Virus record (IMG/VR): IMGVR_UViG_3300028293_000001
Span: 1-54,630 of that record
Strand: one strand, 5' to 3'
Length of the DNA stretch: 54,630 nucleotides
Source: a virus
Lineage: Duplodnaviria; Caudoviricetes
Shown: positions 1-14,098 of the stretch, piece after piece
Position numbering within the stretch: the stretch's first letter is position 1
How the letters are laid out: each line of letters starts with the position of its first letter
Translations under genes and position numbers: made by a program
Notes under the pieces: generated by a model
What the model saw: the letters and a program-made list of their open reading frames with translations, nothing else
Databases searched by the model: none
Told to the model about the DNA's origin: nothing

Positions 1-127
1 GTCCGCTCCGCGCTCGATCTGGTAGGACCGTGGGAAATCGTGGGCGGAGAAGAGCTCGCGCGGCTGGAGCATCCGCATCCCGATATCGACGATCACGTGG
101 GGCTCGCCTTCGACAGTCACAGTCACC
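1..127. repeat. Terminal direct repeat, copy 1 (circular assembly overlap)
   Basis: Bases 1-127 are identical to 54504-54630, and a CDS runs in frame across the junction. Confidence 0.95.
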
Positions 128-1320
128 AGCGCCAGGCTATCGTTCGCGACCACGGTCGGCATCGGCGCCTTGAGGCTCGCGAGCTGCCCGCCGTCGCGGT
201 GGTACTTCGTCAGGAACGCCCGGACTTCGGCGAAGTGGTTGCCCTGGGCGCTTACCGTCCCGAGAGGTTTGGTGACCGGCTGGCCGTCGCGGCAAGTGCC
301 GCGCAGCTTGACGATGCTCAAGGCGACCAGCGCTTTCGTATCCCGGCCCGTGACCGTCGCCATCGGCGCTTCGAGCCGCTGCCCGGTGGCTTCGTGCCCG
401 GCGTTGTGCTTCGCGAGTAAGGTTGCCACCAGATCGCCACGGTTCGAGGTTGGCACCATCGTCGGCATGGGGCGCTCAAGCGAACGGCAGCGAGGATCCT
501 GTCCCAGGCCACCGTTGCGCTTCGGATCCGCCGCATGCATCACGGGCACGATGAACGGGTCGTGTTTCACATACTTCTCGATCCCGCGGGCTATCCGGCG
601 CTGGGTTTTCTCGGCCAGGGGTTTCTTTCGCTCGAAGATCGAAGGGCAGGAGTGCGACAAGTCGATGCACTCCGCGGCCGTGCGCCAGGCCTGCGATCGC
701 CCGGGACCATGGGTCGCCTGCGGCCACACGATCGGGTTGCCGTCGCAGCGCGCGATCAGGAACAAGCGCTTCCTCGAGGTTGGGGCGCCGAAGTCGGCCG
801 CCACGAGCTCGCGGTGCTCGACCACGTAGCCCAGGTTCTCTAGCTGGCGCTTGAACCGCTGAAACGTGGTGCCCATCCTGGCCGGGCACGGTGTGCCGTC
901 GGCGAGCAGTGGACCCCACTTCTGAAACTCCTCGACGTTCTCGAGCACGATCACCCTGGGCTTCCTCGCCTTGAGGGCCTTCACCCAGTAGACCGCGATC
1001 CAGGCAAGAGACCGGATCTTCTTCGACTTCGGCTTCCCGCCCTTCGCCTTGCTGAAGTGCTTGCAATCGGGCGACAGCCACATCAGGCCGACCCGCCGGG
1101 CGCCGCAGACCTTGCGCGGATCCGCGCGCCACACGTTTTCGATGTAGTGCTGGGTGCTCGGGTGGTTCACCCGGTGCATCGAGATCGCTTTCTTGTCGTG
1201 GTTGATCGCGACGTCGGGCGAGCGCCCCAGGGCCCACTCGATCCCCACCGAGGCTCCGCCACCGCCGGCGAACAGATCAACGATCATCTCGTCCTCGCCG
1301 AATAGGCGCAGCTCGCCCAT
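1..1320 (-). CDS. dcm: DNA cytosine-C5 methyltransferase, 5' part (continues across the origin to 54384; about 479 aa in total)
   Basis: Not in the ORF track because it wraps. Manual translation from ATG 1320 gives MGELRLFGEDEMIVDLFAGGGG (motif I), LSPDCKHFS (catalytic Cys motif IV), VLENV (motif VI) and RKRLF (motif VIII). It is in frame with the 54384..54629 ORF containing RMCGNSV (motif X). Confidence 0.93.
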   Translation of the reverse strand, partial: MGELRLFGEDEMIVDLFAGGGGASVGIEWALGRSPDVAINHDKKAISMHRVNHPSTQHYIENVWRADPRKVCGARRVGLMWLSPDCKHFSKAKGGKPKSKKIRSLAWIAVYWVKALKARKPRVIVLENVEEFQKWGPLLADGTPCPARMGTTFQRFKRQLENLGYVVEHRELVAADFGAPTSRKRLFLIARCDGNPIVWPQATHGPGRSQAWRTAAECIDLSHSCPSIFERKKPLAEKTQRRIARGIEKYVKHDPFIVPVMHAADPKRNGGLGQDPRCRSLERPMPTMVPTSNRGDLVATLLAKHNAGHEATGQRLEAPMATVTGRDTKALVALSIVKLRGTCRDGQPVTKPLGTVSAQGNHFAEVRAFLTKYHRDGGQLASLKAPMPTVVANDSLALVTVTVEGEPHVIVDIGMRMLQPRELFSAHDFPRSYQIERGAD

Positions 1321-3430: not shown

Positions 3431-3694
3431 ATGTACGGCATCGAAGTGAAGACGAGCGGGGGGGCCTGGAAGGCGGTGAACCCGCCCGGTGGGCCACCGC
3501 CTTACTGTTTCAAGACCGAAGCGGAGGCCGAGACCCTGGCCCGGATCCTGTATCCGGAGCTCATACGGGTGAAGGCCGAGGGCGGCGAGGAGCTGATCCG
3601 GATCGCGACCGACGGGGTGCGCGAAGCCGGGAAGATCAAGCAGACCAAAGCCCCGGCAGGCTGGGACGAGGTCGAAGGAGGGCCGACACCATGA
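3431..3694 (+). CDS. Hypothetical protein (87 aa)
   Basis: AGGAGG RBS before ATG 3431; ATGA overlap with the next gene. Confidence 0.7.
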   Translation: MYGIEVKTSGGAWKAVNPPGGPPPYCFKTEAEAETLARILYPELIRVKAEGGEELIRIATDGVREAGKIKQTKAPAGWDEVEGGPTP

Positions 3695-4590
3695 GCGAAA
3701 CCTACGGAGGCGCCCTCGTCAAGTCGGTCTCGATCGAGAACCTCGTCAACCAGCGCGCCGCGGTGCTCGAGCGCATCGGCAAGGCGACCGAGCTCCTGCT
3801 CGAGGCACAGTCGATCGCCGGCCAGGCCGGGGTCGGCTTCCCGGACGTCTGCATGACCGCCGGCTACTCGCGCAACATCGAGCACCGGCTGACCGGGCGC
3901 TACCGCGATGACGACTCGAAAGGCTTCATGGACGCAGCACGCACCGCGGTCGACATCGGCGGCTGGTCCTACCTGATGAACGAGTCCGGGATCCGCTCCC
4001 TGATGGACGCCAAGGCCCGCGCGGAGTGGGACAAGCAGCTGGGCGAGAAGAAGGTCCCCGAGCTCACCGCGGAGAATATCCGCCAGACCTTCTCGAACCT
4101 CTACCAGGCGCGGGGCGACATGTTCGAGCGCGGCGTGCTGAATGTCTTCAAAGAGCTCTCCTGGAACTTCAAGACCAACCGCCCCTTCTCCTTCGGCAAG
4201 CGGATCGTACTCCGGGGGCTGCGCTCCTCGTGTAGTGGAGGCCGCCCTGACAGCTTCGGGTACCTGAATCATCGCACCACCGACAAGCTAGACGACCTGG
4301 TGCGGGTTTTCTCGATCCTCGACGGAAAGCCCGAACCCGATCACCGGGACACGTTGTGGTCGAAGATCTCGCAGCAGGAACGGGCCGAGTTCCGGGTGGG
4401 ACGCGCGAACGAGCTCGATATCGCCTACTTCCACCTGCGCTGGTTCAAGAACGGGAACGGGCACCTGACCTTCAAGCGGCCCGACCTGGTCGAAAAGATG
4501 AACCAGATCCTCGCCAAGCACTACCCGCGGGCGCTGCCGGAGGATGGGCACGAGACCGCGACCGAGTTCGATCCTGTAAAGGTAGCTTGA
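3691..4590 (+). CDS. DUF4942-family protein
   Basis: FERGVLNVFKELSWNFKTN..FGKRIV and WFKNGNGHLTFKRPDLV motifs. Confidence 0.75.
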   Translation: MSETYGGALVKSVSIENLVNQRAAVLERIGKATELLLEAQSIAGQAGVGFPDVCMTAGYSRNIEHRLTGRYRDDDSKGFMDAARTAVDIGGWSYLMNESGIRSLMDAKARAEWDKQLGEKKVPELTAENIRQTFSNLYQARGDMFERGVLNVFKELSWNFKTNRPFSFGKRIVLRGLRSSCSGGRPDSFGYLNHRTTDKLDDLVRVFSILDGKPEPDHRDTLWSKISQQERAEFRVGRANELDIAYFHLRWFKNGNGHLTFKRPDLVEKMNQILAKHYPRALPEDGHETATEFDPVKVA

Positions 4591-4616
4591 CTTCGCGGTC
4601 AAGTCGCCTTTACTAT
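4576..4616 (+). promoter_or_regulatory. Sigma70-type promoter with two operator-like boxes
   Basis: TTGACT(4587)-18-TACTAT(4611); GTAAAG-GTAG-CTTGAC (4576-4591) and GTCAAG-TCGC-CTTTAC (4598-4613). Confidence 0.8.
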
Positions 4617-4650
4617 TTGGAATTGAGCGGGAAATGAGAAGGAGGCAGAG

Positions 4651-4875
4651 ATGACCAAGCAAGAACAGTACGCGAAGGGCCTCCAAGCCATCGGCTACGT
4701 TGAGCAGGAAAGCGTGAGCGCGCGGTATCGGATGTTCTACAAGGAAGGCTCCAGCGTGGCCTATATCTTCCTCGGAAAGTCCGGCGCGGTTCGCCACAAC
4801 GCATTCAAGCGGATCACCGGAGCAGTCGCAGCTTCCGAGCGTACCAAGCTAGCGATTCTTGCCAGAGCCGTCTAG
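4651..4875 (+). CDS. Hypothetical protein (74 aa)
   Basis: AAGGAGG RBS downstream of the promoter. Confidence 0.75.
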   Translation: MTKQEQYAKGLQAIGYVEQESVSARYRMFYKEGSSVAYIFLGKSGAVRHNAFKRITGAVAASERTKLAILARAV

Positions 4876-4907
4876 CCCCCTCCACCACAGCACAAGGAGA
4901 AGAAGGG

Positions 4908-10236: not shown

Positions 10237-10664
10237 TCGGGGTCGCGCTCTCCCTGCGCCAGCCCTGGGCCGAGCTCGTGGTGGCCGGCTTGAAGCCGAT
10301 CGAGAACCGGGGCTGGTACACCACGCACCGGGGCCCGCTTTTCATCCACGCGTCGACCTCGGTGGACGTCGATGGCCTGGTGTGGATCAACGACAACGCG
10401 GAGCAGCTGTGCCTGCCTCCTGACGTGCGCGCTTCGATCAATTGTCCGCGGCGCGAACTCGAGCGCGGCGGCCTCATCGGCCTCGTGGATCTGGTCGGGG
10501 TGATACGGGCATCGGAGTCGCCCTGGTTCTTCGGTCCTTACGGCTTCGTGCTCGAGCGACCCGCGCGACTCCCCTTTCTGCGGATGCACGGACAGCTCGG
10601 GGTCTTCAATGTTGCGGTGGCGTCCTCGTATTCAGTGCGCGGAGTCCCGCCACTGCTTGCTTGA
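10233..10664 (+). CDS. ASCH-domain protein
   Basis: LSLRQPWAELVVAGLKPIENR.W..HRG.L.IHAS; GTG 10233 overlaps the upstream TGA. Confidence 0.88.
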   Translation: MIGVALSLRQPWAELVVAGLKPIENRGWYTTHRGPLFIHASTSVDVDGLVWINDNAEQLCLPPDVRASINCPRRELERGGLIGLVDLVGVIRASESPWFFGPYGFVLERPARLPFLRMHGQLGVFNVAVASSYSVRGVPPLLA

Positions 10665-11589
10665 GGTTGTCCCAGTCGAGGGCTTGCTGCTCGGCGACGA
10701 CAAGGAGTTCTCCAACTCCCGCCTTATAGTCAGCAACCGCTGCTCGAGTGTCTCGTTCAGCTTTCTCCAAGGCGTCAGAAAGTCGTGAATTCCCGTCGGC
10801 GCCATCGCAGACGCGGGGAGCTGCTCGAGCTGGTTCCGCTCCTTGCTTGGCGACACTGTCACGTTCTGCGCGCACCCGGGCAAGAGCAGCAGTCCAACCA
10901 GCATTGCTGTCCGCCAGCGCTTTCTCACGCTCATGGTCTTTCTCCTGGATGATGGTCTTGCTCTGGGCGGCTTTCGCCGCGTCTTCGGCCGCGTGCACCG
11001 CCTGGGCTGCAGCGACCTCGGTCTTGAAGCGCTCGAGCTCGGCGCGCGGCGCGCGGCCTCCCTCGTGGTAGATCGCGCCCGTGTATCCGACGAAGGCGAT
11101 GAAGGCGGCGATCCAGCCCACGAGCTGCAGCTGGGCGAAGCCCTCTTGCTTTTTGATCCCGTTGGCGGCGGTGGAGATCTCGTCCCGCTTGGCCGCGCGC
11201 TCTTCTGGGGTCCAGACAGCCTGGTTCGCCTTGTTCACGAGGGCGTCGATGGCGAAGCCAGTGGTGAGCCCGAGATTGATCACGGCGGTCCAGCCTGCTC
11301 CCTGGACGAGGCCGCCCACGGTCGCGGTGAGCGCCCAGCCGCACAGCACGAAGAACGCGAGCGCGGTCGACTTGGGGTGGTCACGGAAGAGGTAGTTACA
11401 TAGCGACCCGCGGATGTCGTCCCGCAGGAACTTGAAGAGGTAGTTCCCAGCCATGCCGAGCACGCCCGAGGAGAGGAGCACCCACATCTGGACGAGCTCG
11501 CGCGATCGCCATACCGCCTGCACGTAGTTCGTAAAGTCCCCCTGCTCGGGCAGGGATTGCTGTACCGCCGCCAGCGCTTCACCGATCAT
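10606..11589 (-). CDS. Holin-like domain fused to an Rz-like i-spanin
   Basis: Directly downstream of the endolysin. About three N-terminal hydrophobic helices, then a TM helix and an Ala-rich coiled coil that contains a nested lipoprotein gene. Confidence 0.7.
   Translation of the reverse strand: MIGEALAAVQQSLPEQGDFTNYVQAVWRSRELVQMWVLLSSGVLGMAGNYLFKFLRDDIRGSLCNYLFRDHPKSTALAFFVLCGWALTATVGGLVQGAGWTAVINLGLTTGFAIDALVNKANQAVWTPEERAAKRDEISTAANGIKKQEGFAQLQLVGWIAAFIAFVGYTGAIYHEGGRAPRAELERFKTEVAAAQAVHAAEDAAKAAQSKTIIQEKDHEREKALADSNAGWTAALARVRAERDSVAKQGAEPARAAPRVCDGADGNSRLSDALEKAERDTRAAVADYKAGVGELLVVAEQQALDWDNLKQAVAGLRALNTRTPPQH
10632..10934 (-). CDS. Rz1-like o-spanin lipoprotein, nested in another frame
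   Basis: MSVRKRWRTAMLVGLLLLPG-C lipobox, entirely inside the i-spanin part. Confidence 0.7.
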   Translation of the reverse strand: MSVRKRWRTAMLVGLLLLPGCAQNVTVSPSKERNQLEQLPASAMAPTGIHDFLTPWRKLNETLEQRLLTIRRELENSLSSPSSKPSTGTTSSKQWRDSAH

Positions 11590-11619
11590 TGGCTTCCCCC
11601 TCCTCGTTGAAAACGTGTT

Positions 11620-12225
11620 CTACGTGATCGCGGTTTTCGCTGCCTCCCAGGTAGCCAGGCGATCTTCCTGGCCGTTCAGGCCCCCGTTGACCGCGAAGGT
11701 GATGCCCCTGAAGTCCCCGCGGTCGGCCAGCTCGTTCAGGTTAACACCTACGGGCACCCCGTACATCCGTGCCGCGACCGAAAGGCGCTGGCCGGCGCCC
11801 ACCGTCCAGAACCAGCCGGCGCTCCTCACTGCGTGCTCTGGGATTTCCAGGAGTTCTGGGCTGCGCTCGAGGGGCAGGTCGATCGCTTCCCCGCAGGCCG
11901 CGTAGTTCGCCCGGCCAGTGATCTGGATAAGGCCGCGCCCGCGGTAGCGAAAGCCGTCCCCCGTCTGGCTGTTCCCCAGGTCCATGGCCTTCCTCGATGG
12001 CGGCTCGTAGGCCTTCTGCGCGGGGCTGGGGCCCCAAATCTCGCGCATCCACAGGAACCCGTTCGACTCATGGGCGACCTGGGCGAGGAAGGCCGACTGG
12101 CGCTCCGGGTTGTCGATCGCGAACTCGCCGAACATGGCGTTCAGTGGATCCAGGAAGAGCGCAAGCCGTACCCGGTTCGTCTTCGGGGCGACCGCCTGCA
12201 GCTCCTCGAGGGTGATCGGGCTCAC
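11620..12225 (-). CDS. Endolysin, glycoside hydrolase family 19
   Basis: AFLAQVAHES, LGN...DGFRYRGRGLIQITGRANY, VNGGLNG..DR. Confidence 0.93.
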   Translation of the reverse strand: MSPITLEELQAVAPKTNRVRLALFLDPLNAMFGEFAIDNPERQSAFLAQVAHESNGFLWMREIWGPSPAQKAYEPPSRKAMDLGNSQTGDGFRYRGRGLIQITGRANYAACGEAIDLPLERSPELLEIPEHAVRSAGWFWTVGAGQRLSVAARMYGVPVGVNLNELADRGDFRGITFAVNGGLNGQEDRLATWEAAKTAIT

Positions 12226-12641
12226 GCGGCGGCTGGCCTCTCTTGGGCTTGGGCTGCCGCCGCCGCTTCGGCCTCTGCGATGGCCTCGGCGATGCGCTGC
12301 TTCTCGAGTTCATCTGCTGCCGCAATAGCGGCCTTCTTGTCGGCGACCCTTTTGATCGCGGCCTCGGTGTGGAAGAAGGGGAGCACCCCGATGACCTTGG
12401 CCCACTCGTCATCCGGGATCGGACCCCATGGCGCCCCCGGAATGTCGGATTGCTGCTTCGGCATCGCCAGATGGTCCTCGATCTCTTTCCTCGCTCGAGC
12501 CGGATCGTCACCGGGCGTCAGGTTGATGCTGTGGAAGTGCTCGTGGATGACGTCCTCCCCGTCCATCGTGAGAAGGGAAAGGCGCGCACGCACTCCGCCT
12601 TGGCGGTCGGTCCCGATGCAAATTACGATCTGTTTTTCCAT
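12222..12641 (-). CDS. Hypothetical protein (possible fiber-associated chaperone)
   Basis: GAGG RBS; lies directly after the tail fiber gene. Confidence 0.6.
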   Translation of the reverse strand: MEKQIVICIGTDRQGGVRARLSLLTMDGEDVIHEHFHSINLTPGDDPARARKEIEDHLAMPKQQSDIPGAPWGPIPDDEWAKVIGVLPFFHTEAAIKRVADKKAAIAAADELEKQRIAEAIAEAEAAAAAQAQERPAAA

Positions 12642-12653
12642 CGAAGCATCCTC

Positions 12654-13886
12654 TTAGTTTAGGGAGTGGCAGCCAGCGATCAGCGCCTGGGCTCCCGCTT
12701 GAAAGACGTTGGTGGTTCCGTCGGAGGCCGAGTTCGCAGTCCGGGCCTTCATGGTCATCAAGGGCGTCGTATCGAGGCTCGCGGTGATGGAAACGAGAGA
12801 GGTGGCCGAGCCCAACATCCGCGTGGCGAACGGCGTCTGGTCCCCGCCGTTCGAGAATGGGAACCCGGACAACTGGCTTTGGCTGCCGTCCCCTTGCGCG
12901 TTGATCGACACCGCGATGCGCAGGTAGACCAGATCTCCGACCTTCGTGTATTTCGCAAGGCGCTGGGTGTAGGTCGTGGTGGTCGCGCCCTGCAGGCTGA
13001 TCGTGAAGGTGCCTTCCTCATAGTCGTCTAGCGTATTCGGATCGGCGGATGGATTTTGCGTAGCCGGAAAGAGGAGTTGACCGATCAGCAGCGAAAGCAC
13101 CCCGGCGGAGGTGAGGACAACTTTCTGCGTGCCCGCGATATCCAGAGAGACCGTGGCTCCGTTGAGAATAAGGTCCTTGAATGAGGCGCTTCCCGTGTTG
13201 TCGACGGCTTCGACGCTGCCGGTCGTTCCACTTGTGCCAATCCGCACTCCGGCGCCGGTGCCGCGAACCAGGATCTTCGTCGACACGTCCACGCTCGTCG
13301 TGCCAAAAATCGACGAGTCCCCGGAGACCTGGAGCGTGGTTCCAACGGTGAATGCGCCAGAGGTCTTGCCAGCACCGACGACGTCCAACGCGACGGCGGG
13401 CGCGTTCGTGCCAATCCCCAAGCGGTTGTTCGCGTGGTCCCAGAATAGCTTCGTAGGATCCTGCGTGGCCTGCCCGGCCGCGCTTCCGAACACGATGCCG
13501 CCGCTGACGAGCAGACCGGTGAATCCCACCCCGGCGAAGGTGATCGCGGTGGTGTCGGGGATGATCGGATCGGCGGTAGTAGTCACCTGCCACAGGCCGA
13601 TCTGGGTTCCCCCGATCACGAGCACCATGCTGCCGCTCGTGATGTCTCCTGGACCATCGAAGTCAGGCTCGCGAGACCAGTCTCCCGTCGACACCGAGTA
13701 GATCCCATTCTCGATGGAGGAGGTCTGGTTCTTCACCAGCACCCGATCGCCCTCGACCAGGGCCACGCCATCGACGGTCTGCTCGCCGTGAAGGACGAGG
13801 TTGCCGAGGCTCGCGGACAAGCACGGGATCTTCAGCGCGAGGCCAGGGGAGAGCGTGCCCTGGCGGCTTACGGAAACTGACGTCAT
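12654..13886 (-). CDS. Tail fiber protein
   Basis: QTVDGVAL..GDRVLVKNQT...ENGIY N-terminal module, NNRLGIGT..P repeat, NTLDDYEEGTFT and YTKVG..V C-terminal fiber motifs. Confidence 0.8.
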   Translation of the reverse strand: MTSVSVSRQGTLSPGLALKIPCLSASLGNLVLHGEQTVDGVALVEGDRVLVKNQTSSIENGIYSVSTGDWSREPDFDGPGDITSGSMVLVIGGTQIGLWQVTTTADPIIPDTTAITFAGVGFTGLLVSGGIVFGSAAGQATQDPTKLFWDHANNRLGIGTNAPAVALDVVGAGKTSGAFTVGTTLQVSGDSSIFGTTSVDVSTKILVRGTGAGVRIGTSGTTGSVEAVDNTGSASFKDLILNGATVSLDIAGTQKVVLTSAGVLSLLIGQLLFPATQNPSADPNTLDDYEEGTFTISLQGATTTTYTQRLAKYTKVGDLVYLRIAVSINAQGDGSQSQLSGFPFSNGGDQTPFATRMLGSATSLVSITASLDTTPLMTMKARTANSASDGTTNVFQAGAQALIAGCHSLN

Positions 13887-14098
13887 AGCCGTGCTCCTTG
13901 TTGTGCCGCAACAATGATGAACCCGGTGCCGAGCACGAGGGCGACAGCGCCGATCCCGTACCAGGCCCAGGCATTGTCGGCCTGCTCGGGGAAAAAGACG
14001 AGAAGCGCGTTACCGGCCGCCCACACCACCGCCGCGGCGATCGCGCTGCCAGCCGCGAGCACGCCGTTCACGAGGAGGAAGGCGGCGAGGCTCCTCAC
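13883..14098 (-). CDS. Small two-TM membrane protein
   Basis: Two hydrophobic helices; 4-nt overlaps on both sides. Confidence 0.6.
   Translation of the reverse strand: MRSLAAFLLVNGVLAAGSAIAAAVVWAAGNALLVFFPEQADNAWAWYGIGAVALVLGTGFIIVAAQQGARL

Follow-up and report, generated by a model that had tools for sequence, protein, structure and literature searches.

In the present study, a single open reading frame (ORF) in the genome of an uncultured soil phage was found to join a holin-like membrane module to an inner-membrane spanin (i-spanin). The window, that is, the whole stretch of DNA analysed here, is the complete 54,630-bp IMG/VR virus record IMGVR_UViG_3300028293_000001 (Duplodnaviria; Caudoviricetes), which has direct terminal repeats and 66% G+C. 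The fusion ORF (10606..11589, minus strand) starts with an ATG that lies 6-7 nt downstream of a Shine-Dalgarno-like GGAGGGGG run, and it encodes 327 residues arranged as a holin-like module, a linker, a fourth transmembrane (TM) helix and a periplasmic i-spanin domain. As far as sequence tells, it is a genuine and rare in-frame join of two normally separate lysis genes. With a little more than even confidence, we read its product as an uncleaved four-helix protein that couples the holin-like module to the i-spanin. Hydropathy analysis (Kyte-Doolittle) revealed four hydrophobic segments (residues 35-55, 75-96, 99-119 and 150-174), and an AlphaFold2 model of residues 1-185, built on a 94-row alignment with a mean predicted local distance difference test score of 88.3, showed two short N-terminal helices, long helices at residues 30-55, 72-91 and 100-120, a linker helix at 128-145 and a fourth long helix at 149-175. 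The initial annotation had described one 327-residue ORF combining a holin-like multi-TM part with a TM plus coiled-coil i-spanin, and the ORF, the four helices and the two underlying protein families were all recovered.

The two halves of the fusion belong to different families. An exhaustive HMMER search with the fusion against 1.84 billion representative proteins gave 179 matches at E<=1e-3; each of the 150 matches listed covers one half of the query (residues 1 to about 150, or 150-327), the query's own cluster excepted. When 160 collected proteins were re-scored for each half, 94 matched residues 1-140 and 67 matched residues 151-327, and both halves were matched only by the query (P0001) and by P0002. 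The latter protein has 328 residues and the same architecture, shares 67% identity with the query across 99% of its length, derives from a different data source and is present on 3 contigs. Because this independent protein shares the architecture, the fusion did not arise by chance during assembly. A word-index search with A1, aimed at longer proteins, also returned only P0001 and P0002, this search being non-exhaustive and having missed the 293-residue P0141. Logan contigs from two soil sequencing runs, which may be the source sample, showed 0 substitutions and 0 insertions or deletions across 10400-11800. Among the sequencing runs that contain the sequence, no RNA run was listed. The in-frame G+C content at third codon positions (GC3) stays at 0.77-0.97 through residue 210, the junction included, and falls to 0.43-0.63 where the frame of an embedded outer-membrane spanin (o-spanin) overlaps, as expected from the dual coding of the i-spanin and o-spanin frames. 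No leftover start codon was observed at the N-terminus of the spanin part, the initiator Met of the stand-alone relative P0003 being aligned with Gly144 of the fusion. A stop or frameshift between two genes, which the initial annotation had named as a finding that would speak against a fusion, was therefore not observed, since P0002 reads in a single frame and the Logan contigs are identical. With the 327-residue protein as tblastn query, none of 50,697 phage records was matched at E<=1e-3, an IMG/VR scan with the fusion protein alone gave 2 pattern matches, none of them confirmed, and Pfam, PHROG and NCBIfam returned nothing meaningful for the fusion or for either half.

The C-terminal half is predicted to be a spanin of a well-known kind. 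The fourth TM helix (residues 149-175; 11065..11145, minus strand) would be the i-spanin's own in-to-out anchor and aligns with the N-terminal TM helix of P0003, and it is followed by a periplasmic alpha-helical domain recognised by homology (residues 176-327; 10609..11064, minus strand), which has one conserved Cys (C261) that is invariant in alignment A3. Nearly all relatives of this half (65/67) are stand-alone proteins of 130-228 residues with one N-terminal TM helix and a helical domain, and in the HMMER search residues 156-321 aligned with TM-plus-coiled-coil i-spanins of 150-210 residues. Wholly within the i-spanin coding region, and in its +1 frame (11589-10934 = 655), lies a 100-residue lipoprotein precursor (10632..10934, minus strand), whose ATG is preceded at 6 nt by an AGGAGA run and which has an L-P-G-C lipobox. 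Its sole family match is a weak one to phrog_11621, an Rz-like spanin (E 0.0082), and it is 57% identical (E 5e-31) to an ORF inside the i-spanin gene of L005, a 1029-bp metagenome contig. The nested lipoprotein gene reported in the initial annotation was thus recovered together with a homologue. L005 carries the closest stand-alone i-spanin/o-spanin pair (1..690). Its i-spanin is P0003 (53% identity), and the gene of P0003 begins in an ATGA overlap where a GH19 endolysin gene stops, so that no membrane gene separates the two. Compared with this locus, the arrangement in the window looks like the insertion or fusion of a holin-like gene between endolysin and spanin. Since the P0003 locus carries a homologous embedded lipoprotein ORF, the pair in the window is assigned, by homology, to the conserved embedded-type spanins. 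Three features of an embedded two-component spanin were found, namely an in-to-out TM helix with a helical periplasmic domain, a nested lipobox ORF and a neighbouring endolysin gene, and the departure from the usual plan is that the i-spanin TM helix of the fusion is internal and not N-terminal. Scans of JGI metagenomes gave 597 pattern matches with alignment A3, none of them confirmed, and with P0003 as query only its own 1029-bp contig was found.

The N-terminal half (residues 1-140; 11170..11589, minus strand) is a three-TM holin-like module that was delimited by family matches and by the three long helices of the model. Its family has at least 94 members, mostly viral, and the stand-alone relatives are three-helix phage membrane proteins of 100-170 residues. 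The conserved core ends in N-K ... W-T-x-E-E-R, and G45, Y66, D115 and N119 are invariant in the 27-row alignment A1. The top structural match of the model in BFVD is a 130-residue protein named 'Holin' (E 6.1e-4, target TM-score 0.68), and several lower-ranked neighbours likewise bear the name holin, these names being annotations and not tests. The neighbours in the ESM Atlas are viral hypothetical proteins of 126-139 residues with scores <0.9, which serve as leads only. By a positive-inside count, made with no dedicated predictor, 5 Lys or Arg residues lie in the loop at 53-74 and 6 lie at 120-149. An extra N-terminal hydrophobic segment is present in 15/94 family members, and in 12 of these it is signal-peptide-like, whereas the other 3 have about 95 residues plus a TM helix. 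The charge distribution and the 12/94 signal-like extensions fit an N-out, C-in topology, which is the putative one for the module. The three remaining proteins (P0007, P0009 and P0010; 233-235 residues) carry a soluble domain of about 95 residues and an extra TM helix ahead of the holin-like module, an extension that recalls those of the holin/antiholin type.

The genomic context of this family was read at four loci. An IMG/VR scan with alignment A2 provided 3 of them (L002, L003 and L004), and a scan of GTDB with A5 gave 3 loci in metagenome-assembled genomes (MAGs) of Nevskia, of which L006 was read; the GTDB scan with A2 gave 106 pattern matches, none of them confirmed. At all four loci the family member lies in a lysis-cassette context, with an endolysin-type enzyme or an Rz-like spanin encoded no more than 1.5 kb away. 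In L003 the neighbours are a GH19 endolysin (phrog_181, 1.3e-69) and a TM-plus-coil ORF that contains a lipobox ORF, whereas L004 encodes an endolysin that matches phrog_90 (2.1e-37). The neighbour in L002 is an Rz-like spanin (phrog_1403, 8.7e-5), again with a lipobox ORF nested in its gene, and in L006 the gene immediately before the family member encodes a transglycosylase-type enzyme. In L002 (1363..1755), L003 (2654..3004) and L004 (2684..3004), the gene of a different small TM protein immediately precedes the family member and often overlaps its start, which suggests a two-gene pair of the holin/antiholin type. Taken together, position, topology and resemblance of the modelled fold indicate that the N-terminal module is most likely the holin of this phage or a holin-class lysis membrane protein.

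The two halves meet at the motif KKQEGFAQLQL (residues 146-156; 11122..11154, minus strand), which contains the proposed site between G150 and F151 at the cytoplasmic start of the fourth helix. The Gly-Phe boundary had been placed at 11140/11139, and this position is exact, the codon of Gly150 being 11142-11140 and that of Phe151 being 11139-11137. Between P0001 and P0002, identity is 100/127 in the N-terminal module and 101/152 in the periplasmic domain; it falls to 5/20 in the linker and to 4/19 in the remainder of that helix which follows the junction, and it is 7/9 in residues 148-156 around the Gly-Phe pair. The junction motif is thus an island of conservation between poorly kept flanks. 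The same junction recurs in other proteins with this module. Among the 94 module matches, 82 had the D...N[KR] landmark that was required for the fusion scan and the other 12 were set aside; 71 of the 82 stop shortly past the core and 11 run on into a hydrophobic segment. These 11 comprise 2 i-spanin fusions (P0001 and P0002) with a [KR]-[QA]-x-G-F junction, 7 lipoprotein fusions with a lipobox (P0067, P0083, P0095 and P0154-P0157), two of which are named as Nevskia MAG proteins, and 2 fusions (P0054 and P0141) in which a G-G-[RK] junction is followed by a signal of the A-x-A type and a further domain. Directly ahead of the hydrophobic run, [KR]-[QA]-x-G-F is present in 9/11 fusions. The closest stand-alone i-spanin, P0003, begins 7 residues before the same Gly-Phe pair, and the motif is therefore native to the N-terminus of this i-spanin clade. 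Conservation at the junction, which the initial annotation had proposed as a check, was therefore observed, the Gly-Phe pair being kept in P0002, in P0003 and in 7/7 lipoprotein fusions.

The sibling fusions differ in what follows the junction. P0054 (215 residues) and P0141 (293 residues) have Q-P-G-G-[RK], a hydrophobic segment, a signal-peptidase I site of the A-R-A-Q type and a further domain, and they are a third type of fusion partner. In the Nevskia locus L006, the fusion gene (3501..4205) encodes a K-x-x-G-F junction, an internal lipobox signal and an Ala-rich domain of about 95 residues, and P0067, P0095 and P0154-P0157 have the same layout. The order of genes in L006 is a transglycosylase-type enzyme, the lipoprotein fusion, a 99-residue ORF and a 130-residue TM-plus-coiled-coil ORF (4512..4904). 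The lipoprotein fusion of L006 may be a fusion of the holin/o-spanin type, and the 130-residue ORF, which has no PHROG match, could by its anatomy be the matching i-spanin.

The initial annotation had read the junction as a class III (prepilin) signal. According to the part of PMC8179133 covered here, such a signal begins with a hydrophilic leader at the N-terminus whose last residue is Gly or Ala; the next 21 or so residues are mainly hydrophobic and include Glu at +5 (IPR012902). A Gly followed by a hydrophobic tract is present in the fusion, with G150, a mean hydropathy of about 1.6 over residues 151-171, and Gln as the residue at both +3 and +5. This Gly, residue 150, comes after three TM helices and not after a short N-terminal leader. 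At +5, the nine fusions with a Gly-Phe junction have Q, Q, N, T, G, S, G, N and N, and P0003 has V; the Gln at +5 that had been pointed out earlier is present in both P0001 and P0002, and Glu or Asp is found in none of the nine. Searches with PF07963 and TIGR02532 gave no match at E<=10 for residues 140-327, P0002, P0003 or P0083, with the reservation that the HMMER filters may drop weak matches. With an internal site, no acidic residue at +5 and no match to either profile, the class III reading was not upheld, and membership of the junction in this class is ruled out as judged from its predicted features, an exclusion that does not extend to cleavage itself. In mutagenesis of Pseudomonas pilin, the Gly at -1 is reportedly the main determinant of cleavage and the Glu at +5 dispensable for it. 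A literature search gave no paper that ties a prepilin peptidase to phage lysis proteins, and it gave no description of a natural holin-spanin fusion, the supplement of PMC6139136 being outside this coverage.

Herein, we propose that the fusion acts as an uncleaved holin-like/spanin protein. From the N-terminal module, a variable cytoplasmic linker of about 30 residues would lead to the fourth helix, which would be the i-spanin's own signal-anchor and would serve as an internal export signal after a three-helix module that ends in the cytoplasm. This helix would export the coiled-coil domain to the periplasm, and there the i-spanin domain would pair with the embedded o-spanin lipoprotein. The i-spanin would thus be anchored by four helices rather than one, without cleavage, and spanin and holin-like module would be produced 1:1 and stay side by side in the inner membrane. 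In this model, the conserved [KR]-Q-x-G-F would represent the cytoplasmic n-region and the helix start of the internal export signal. In the sibling fusions, the release device would depend on the partner, being a lipobox or an A-x-A site, and none would be provided for a membrane-anchored i-spanin. In the part of PMC3556154 covered here, the TM helix of Rz is reported to be replaceable by heterologous transmembrane domains (TMDs), that is, to be a tether, and the i-spanins of phiCbK-like phages are reported to carry naturally one or two extra N-terminal TMDs. Because the TM helix, by that account, acts only as a tether, an i-spanin would need no cleavage (PMC3556154), and together the replaceable TM helix of Rz and the extra TMDs of phiCbK make an uncleaved four-helix protein the simplest model. 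The sibling fusions carry export signals of their own after the same junction, which fits the fourth helix as an internal export signal. The sequence data show the fusion of the two families, the embedded o-spanin, the setting in a lysis cassette and the conservation of the motif, and from them we infer hole-forming activity, topology and the absence of cleavage.

Several observations weigh against this proposal. The junction is kept far better than its flanks, and in 7/7 lipoprotein fusions the K, G and F are invariant despite a linker that varies in length and sequence; a mere n-region has no need of such invariance, and some specific recognition, possibly proteolytic, is conceivable. The Gly-Phe pair is not general among i-spanins: of the stand-alone ones, only 4/65 have a Gly-Phe pair and a hydrophobic run near the N-terminus, 2 of them (P0003 and P0056) with a basic leader. 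The module family is known from sequence and models only: none of its 27 aligned members has a meaningful Pfam or PHROG match, no holin family being among the results, and the module of the fusion belongs to no described holin family in Pfam, PHROG or NCBIfam. The TM genes upstream of the family member in L002-L004 mean that the family could be an antiholin or a regulator and not the hole-former, and a two-TM ORF of 71 residues elsewhere in the window (13883..14098, minus strand) could be the real holin.

These observations lead to the alternative explanations. It is possible, if somewhat doubtful, that the N-terminal module is an antiholin, a regulator or an extended anchor that ties the spanin to a separate holin elsewhere, such as the product of 13883..14098. 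The phiCbK i-spanins, and the interpretation given to them in the portion of PMC3556154 covered here, provide a precedent, and a second small TM protein directly upstream in three of the loci read, the two-TM ORF that the window has 2.3 kb upstream on the strand of the fusion, and the missing match to any hidden Markov model of a holin family are all consistent with it. However, the 71-residue ORF has no family and lies among structural genes, outside the cassette, and the best structural neighbour of the module is annotated as a holin. Moreover, the endolysin has no signal or signal-anchor-release sequence, so that a large-hole holin is needed, and the module is the sole TM protein that adjoins it. 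As to the conserved junction, we consider it unlikely that a PilD/GspO-type prepilin peptidase of the host separates G150 from F151 at the cytoplasmic face and thereby frees a single-TM i-spanin from the holin-like module. Cleavage of this kind would agree with Gly at -1, Phe at +1, basic or polar residues upstream and a hydrophobic helix downstream, with the location of the site where an in-to-out helix starts on the cytoplasmic side, which is the place of action of such peptidases according to the part of PMC8179133 covered here, with the nine-residue island of conservation between P0001 and P0002, with the recurrence of [KR]-[QA]-x-G-F in most module fusions, and with the 7-residue leader of P0003 that ends in Gly-Phe. 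Against it, the three junction-bearing sequences all lack a PF07963 or TIGR02532 match at E<=10 (weak ones may be filtered), the +5 residue is never acidic in the nine Gly-Phe fusions, and the leader would comprise about 150 residues and three TM helices instead of the short hydrophilic N-terminal one described in that part of PMC8179133. Spanin function does not require such a cut, by the account in the covered part of PMC3556154, and in the lipoprotein fusions the lipobox already gives release. The literature search found no link of prepilin peptidase to phage lysis proteins, and cleavage would account for the conservation of the motif and nothing further.

A broader form of this idea, to which we give similarly little credence, is that [KR]-Q-x-G-F is the dedicated recognition or processing site of a phage 'lysis polyprotein' family, and that in the present case an intramembrane protease of the host, most plausibly the prepilin peptidase, would cut at G150|F151 and free the spanin. 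Such a family, as a part of the same tentative proposal, would combine the holin-like module with an i-spanin, an o-spanin-like lipoprotein or a secreted partner. A separate i-spanin might also arise, besides the fusion or in place of it, from an internal translation start near the junction, where a GAGGG run within the K-Q-E-G codons precedes an in-frame GTG (V157). This is very improbable, since the GTG lies 19 nt past the GAGGG, which is too far, and is the only canonical in-frame start among residues 121-160; its use would leave a hydrophobic stub of 17-18 residues without a basic N-terminus, and P0002 has at this position an Ala, which cannot be a start. Finally, the fusion is found in only one 50%-identity cluster, and both runs that contain the sequence may be its source, so that a sequencing or assembly error might have erased a stop or shifted the frame between adjacent genes. 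We regard such an artefact as scarcely credible in view of the single frame of P0002, which is 67% identical and from another data source, the base-for-base identity of two separate Logan assemblies, the continuous GC3 through the junction and the lack of a remnant start codon, as seen from the alignment of the Met of P0003 with Gly144.

The uncleaved holin-like/spanin protein proposed here can be compared with several known systems. Like the embedded spanins of the lambda Rz/Rz1 type (SpaninDB, PMC6139136, the portion covered here), the fusion has an in-to-out TM helix, a helical periplasmic domain and a lipoprotein embedded in the +1 frame; the pair lies beside the endolysin gene, and a periplasmic Cys is kept in the i-spanin. 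Unlike them, its i-spanin TM helix is preceded by a three-TM module of 150 residues, and no match to the sequence of lambda Rz was found. The covered portion of PMC6139136 describes no holin-fused spanin architecture. The phiCbK-like i-spanins of Caulobacter phages (PMC3556154, as far as covered here) resemble the fusion in having extra helices ahead of the anchoring TM helix, and for these helices the authors suggested a coordination between spanin and holin. They differ, by the same portion of that source, in having one or two TMDs of no named family together with a separate holin gene, as opposed to the full module of a stand-alone family observed here, and in the window no other TM gene adjoins the endolysin gene. 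Given that tblastn gave no match among the phage records searched, the phiCbK proteins are not detectable homologues of the fusion.

The N-terminal module shares with class I holins such as lambda S105, as described in the covered portions of PMC3556154 and PMC6139136, three TMDs and a place in the cassette beside a cytoplasmic endolysin, and its putative N-out/C-in orientation, with a basic C-terminal tail in the cytoplasm, would also be like theirs. It differs from them in having no tie by sequence or profile to a named holin family, and in its size of about 140 residues with a periplasmic amphipathic N-terminus of 30 residues. The junction resembles the class III signals of PMC8179133 (covered part) in its Gly at -1, its Phe at +1, the polar or basic residues before it, the helix after it and its cytoplasmic face, and differs from them in being internal, in lacking Glu at +5, in having polar residues at +3 and +5 and in being followed by a coiled coil instead of a pilin head. 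The Nevskia MAG prophage proteins of L006 are like the fusion in belonging to the module family (E 3e-10 to 1.7e-8 to the query), in the K-x-x-G-F before a hydrophobic segment and in their place after an endolysin-type enzyme. In contrast to the fusion, their module is joined to a lipobox-bearing lipoprotein of about 95 residues, which signal peptidase II can release, and a separate 130-residue TM-plus-coiled-coil ORF follows 300 bp downstream.

In the window, the fusion ORF is the last of the four genes that end a late operon on the minus strand, which are a tail-fibre-like gene (12654..13886, minus strand; phrog_11518), a 139-residue ORF (12222..12641, minus strand), the GH19 endolysin gene (11620..12225, minus strand) and the fusion ORF, and the gene downstream of it is on the opposite strand. 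The endolysin has 201 residues and matches phrog_181 (E 6e-56) and PF00182 Glyco_hydro_19 (E 5.5e-10, above the cutoff); it has no N-terminal TM helix or signal, and no hydrophobic segment was flagged in it. It is encoded directly upstream of the fusion ORF, with 31 nt from its end to the start of the fusion, and the only TM protein that adjoins it is the N-terminal module of the fusion. The 139-residue ORF between the tail-fibre-like gene and the endolysin gene encodes a protein without a TM helix and without a Pfam or PHROG family, and with an Ala/Glu-rich C-terminal tail. The 71-residue ORF at 13883..14098 starts with GTG and encodes two Ala/Gly-rich hydrophobic segments; it is flanked on one side by a large gene for a virion structural protein and on the other by the tail-fibre-like gene, has no PHROG family, and could encode a second holin, a pinholin-like protein or a virion or membrane accessory protein. 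A scan of 10300-12800 for promoters and terminators revealed nothing that exceeded shuffled sequences. The best relatives of the structural proteins encoded in the window are 37% identical and scattered across many Gram-negative genera.

Thus, the parts of this lysis cassette are of known kinds: the endolysin is a GH19 enzyme, the spanin is of the embedded two-component type and the third part is a holin-like membrane protein. The covalent fusion of a holin-like protein to an i-spanin is new as far as the searches show, and the same may be said of one unannotated lysis-cassette module that is joined through a conserved junction to different exported partners. If the junction were cleaved, phages would borrow the pilin-maturation enzyme of the host to time or separate lysis functions, and if the cut were made by the prepilin peptidase, no class-III-like site would have been known before in an internal position, and no other phage lysis protein would be known to mature in this way. 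The catalogued spanin architectures are embedded, overlapped, separated and unimolecular, and an i-spanin fused to a complete holin-like protein adds another. The finding also defines an unannotated, mostly viral three-helix family in lysis cassettes that has repeatedly gained exported partners, and it offers a natural construct for asking if the joint action of spanins and holins is physical and stoichiometric or if the two simply act one after the other.

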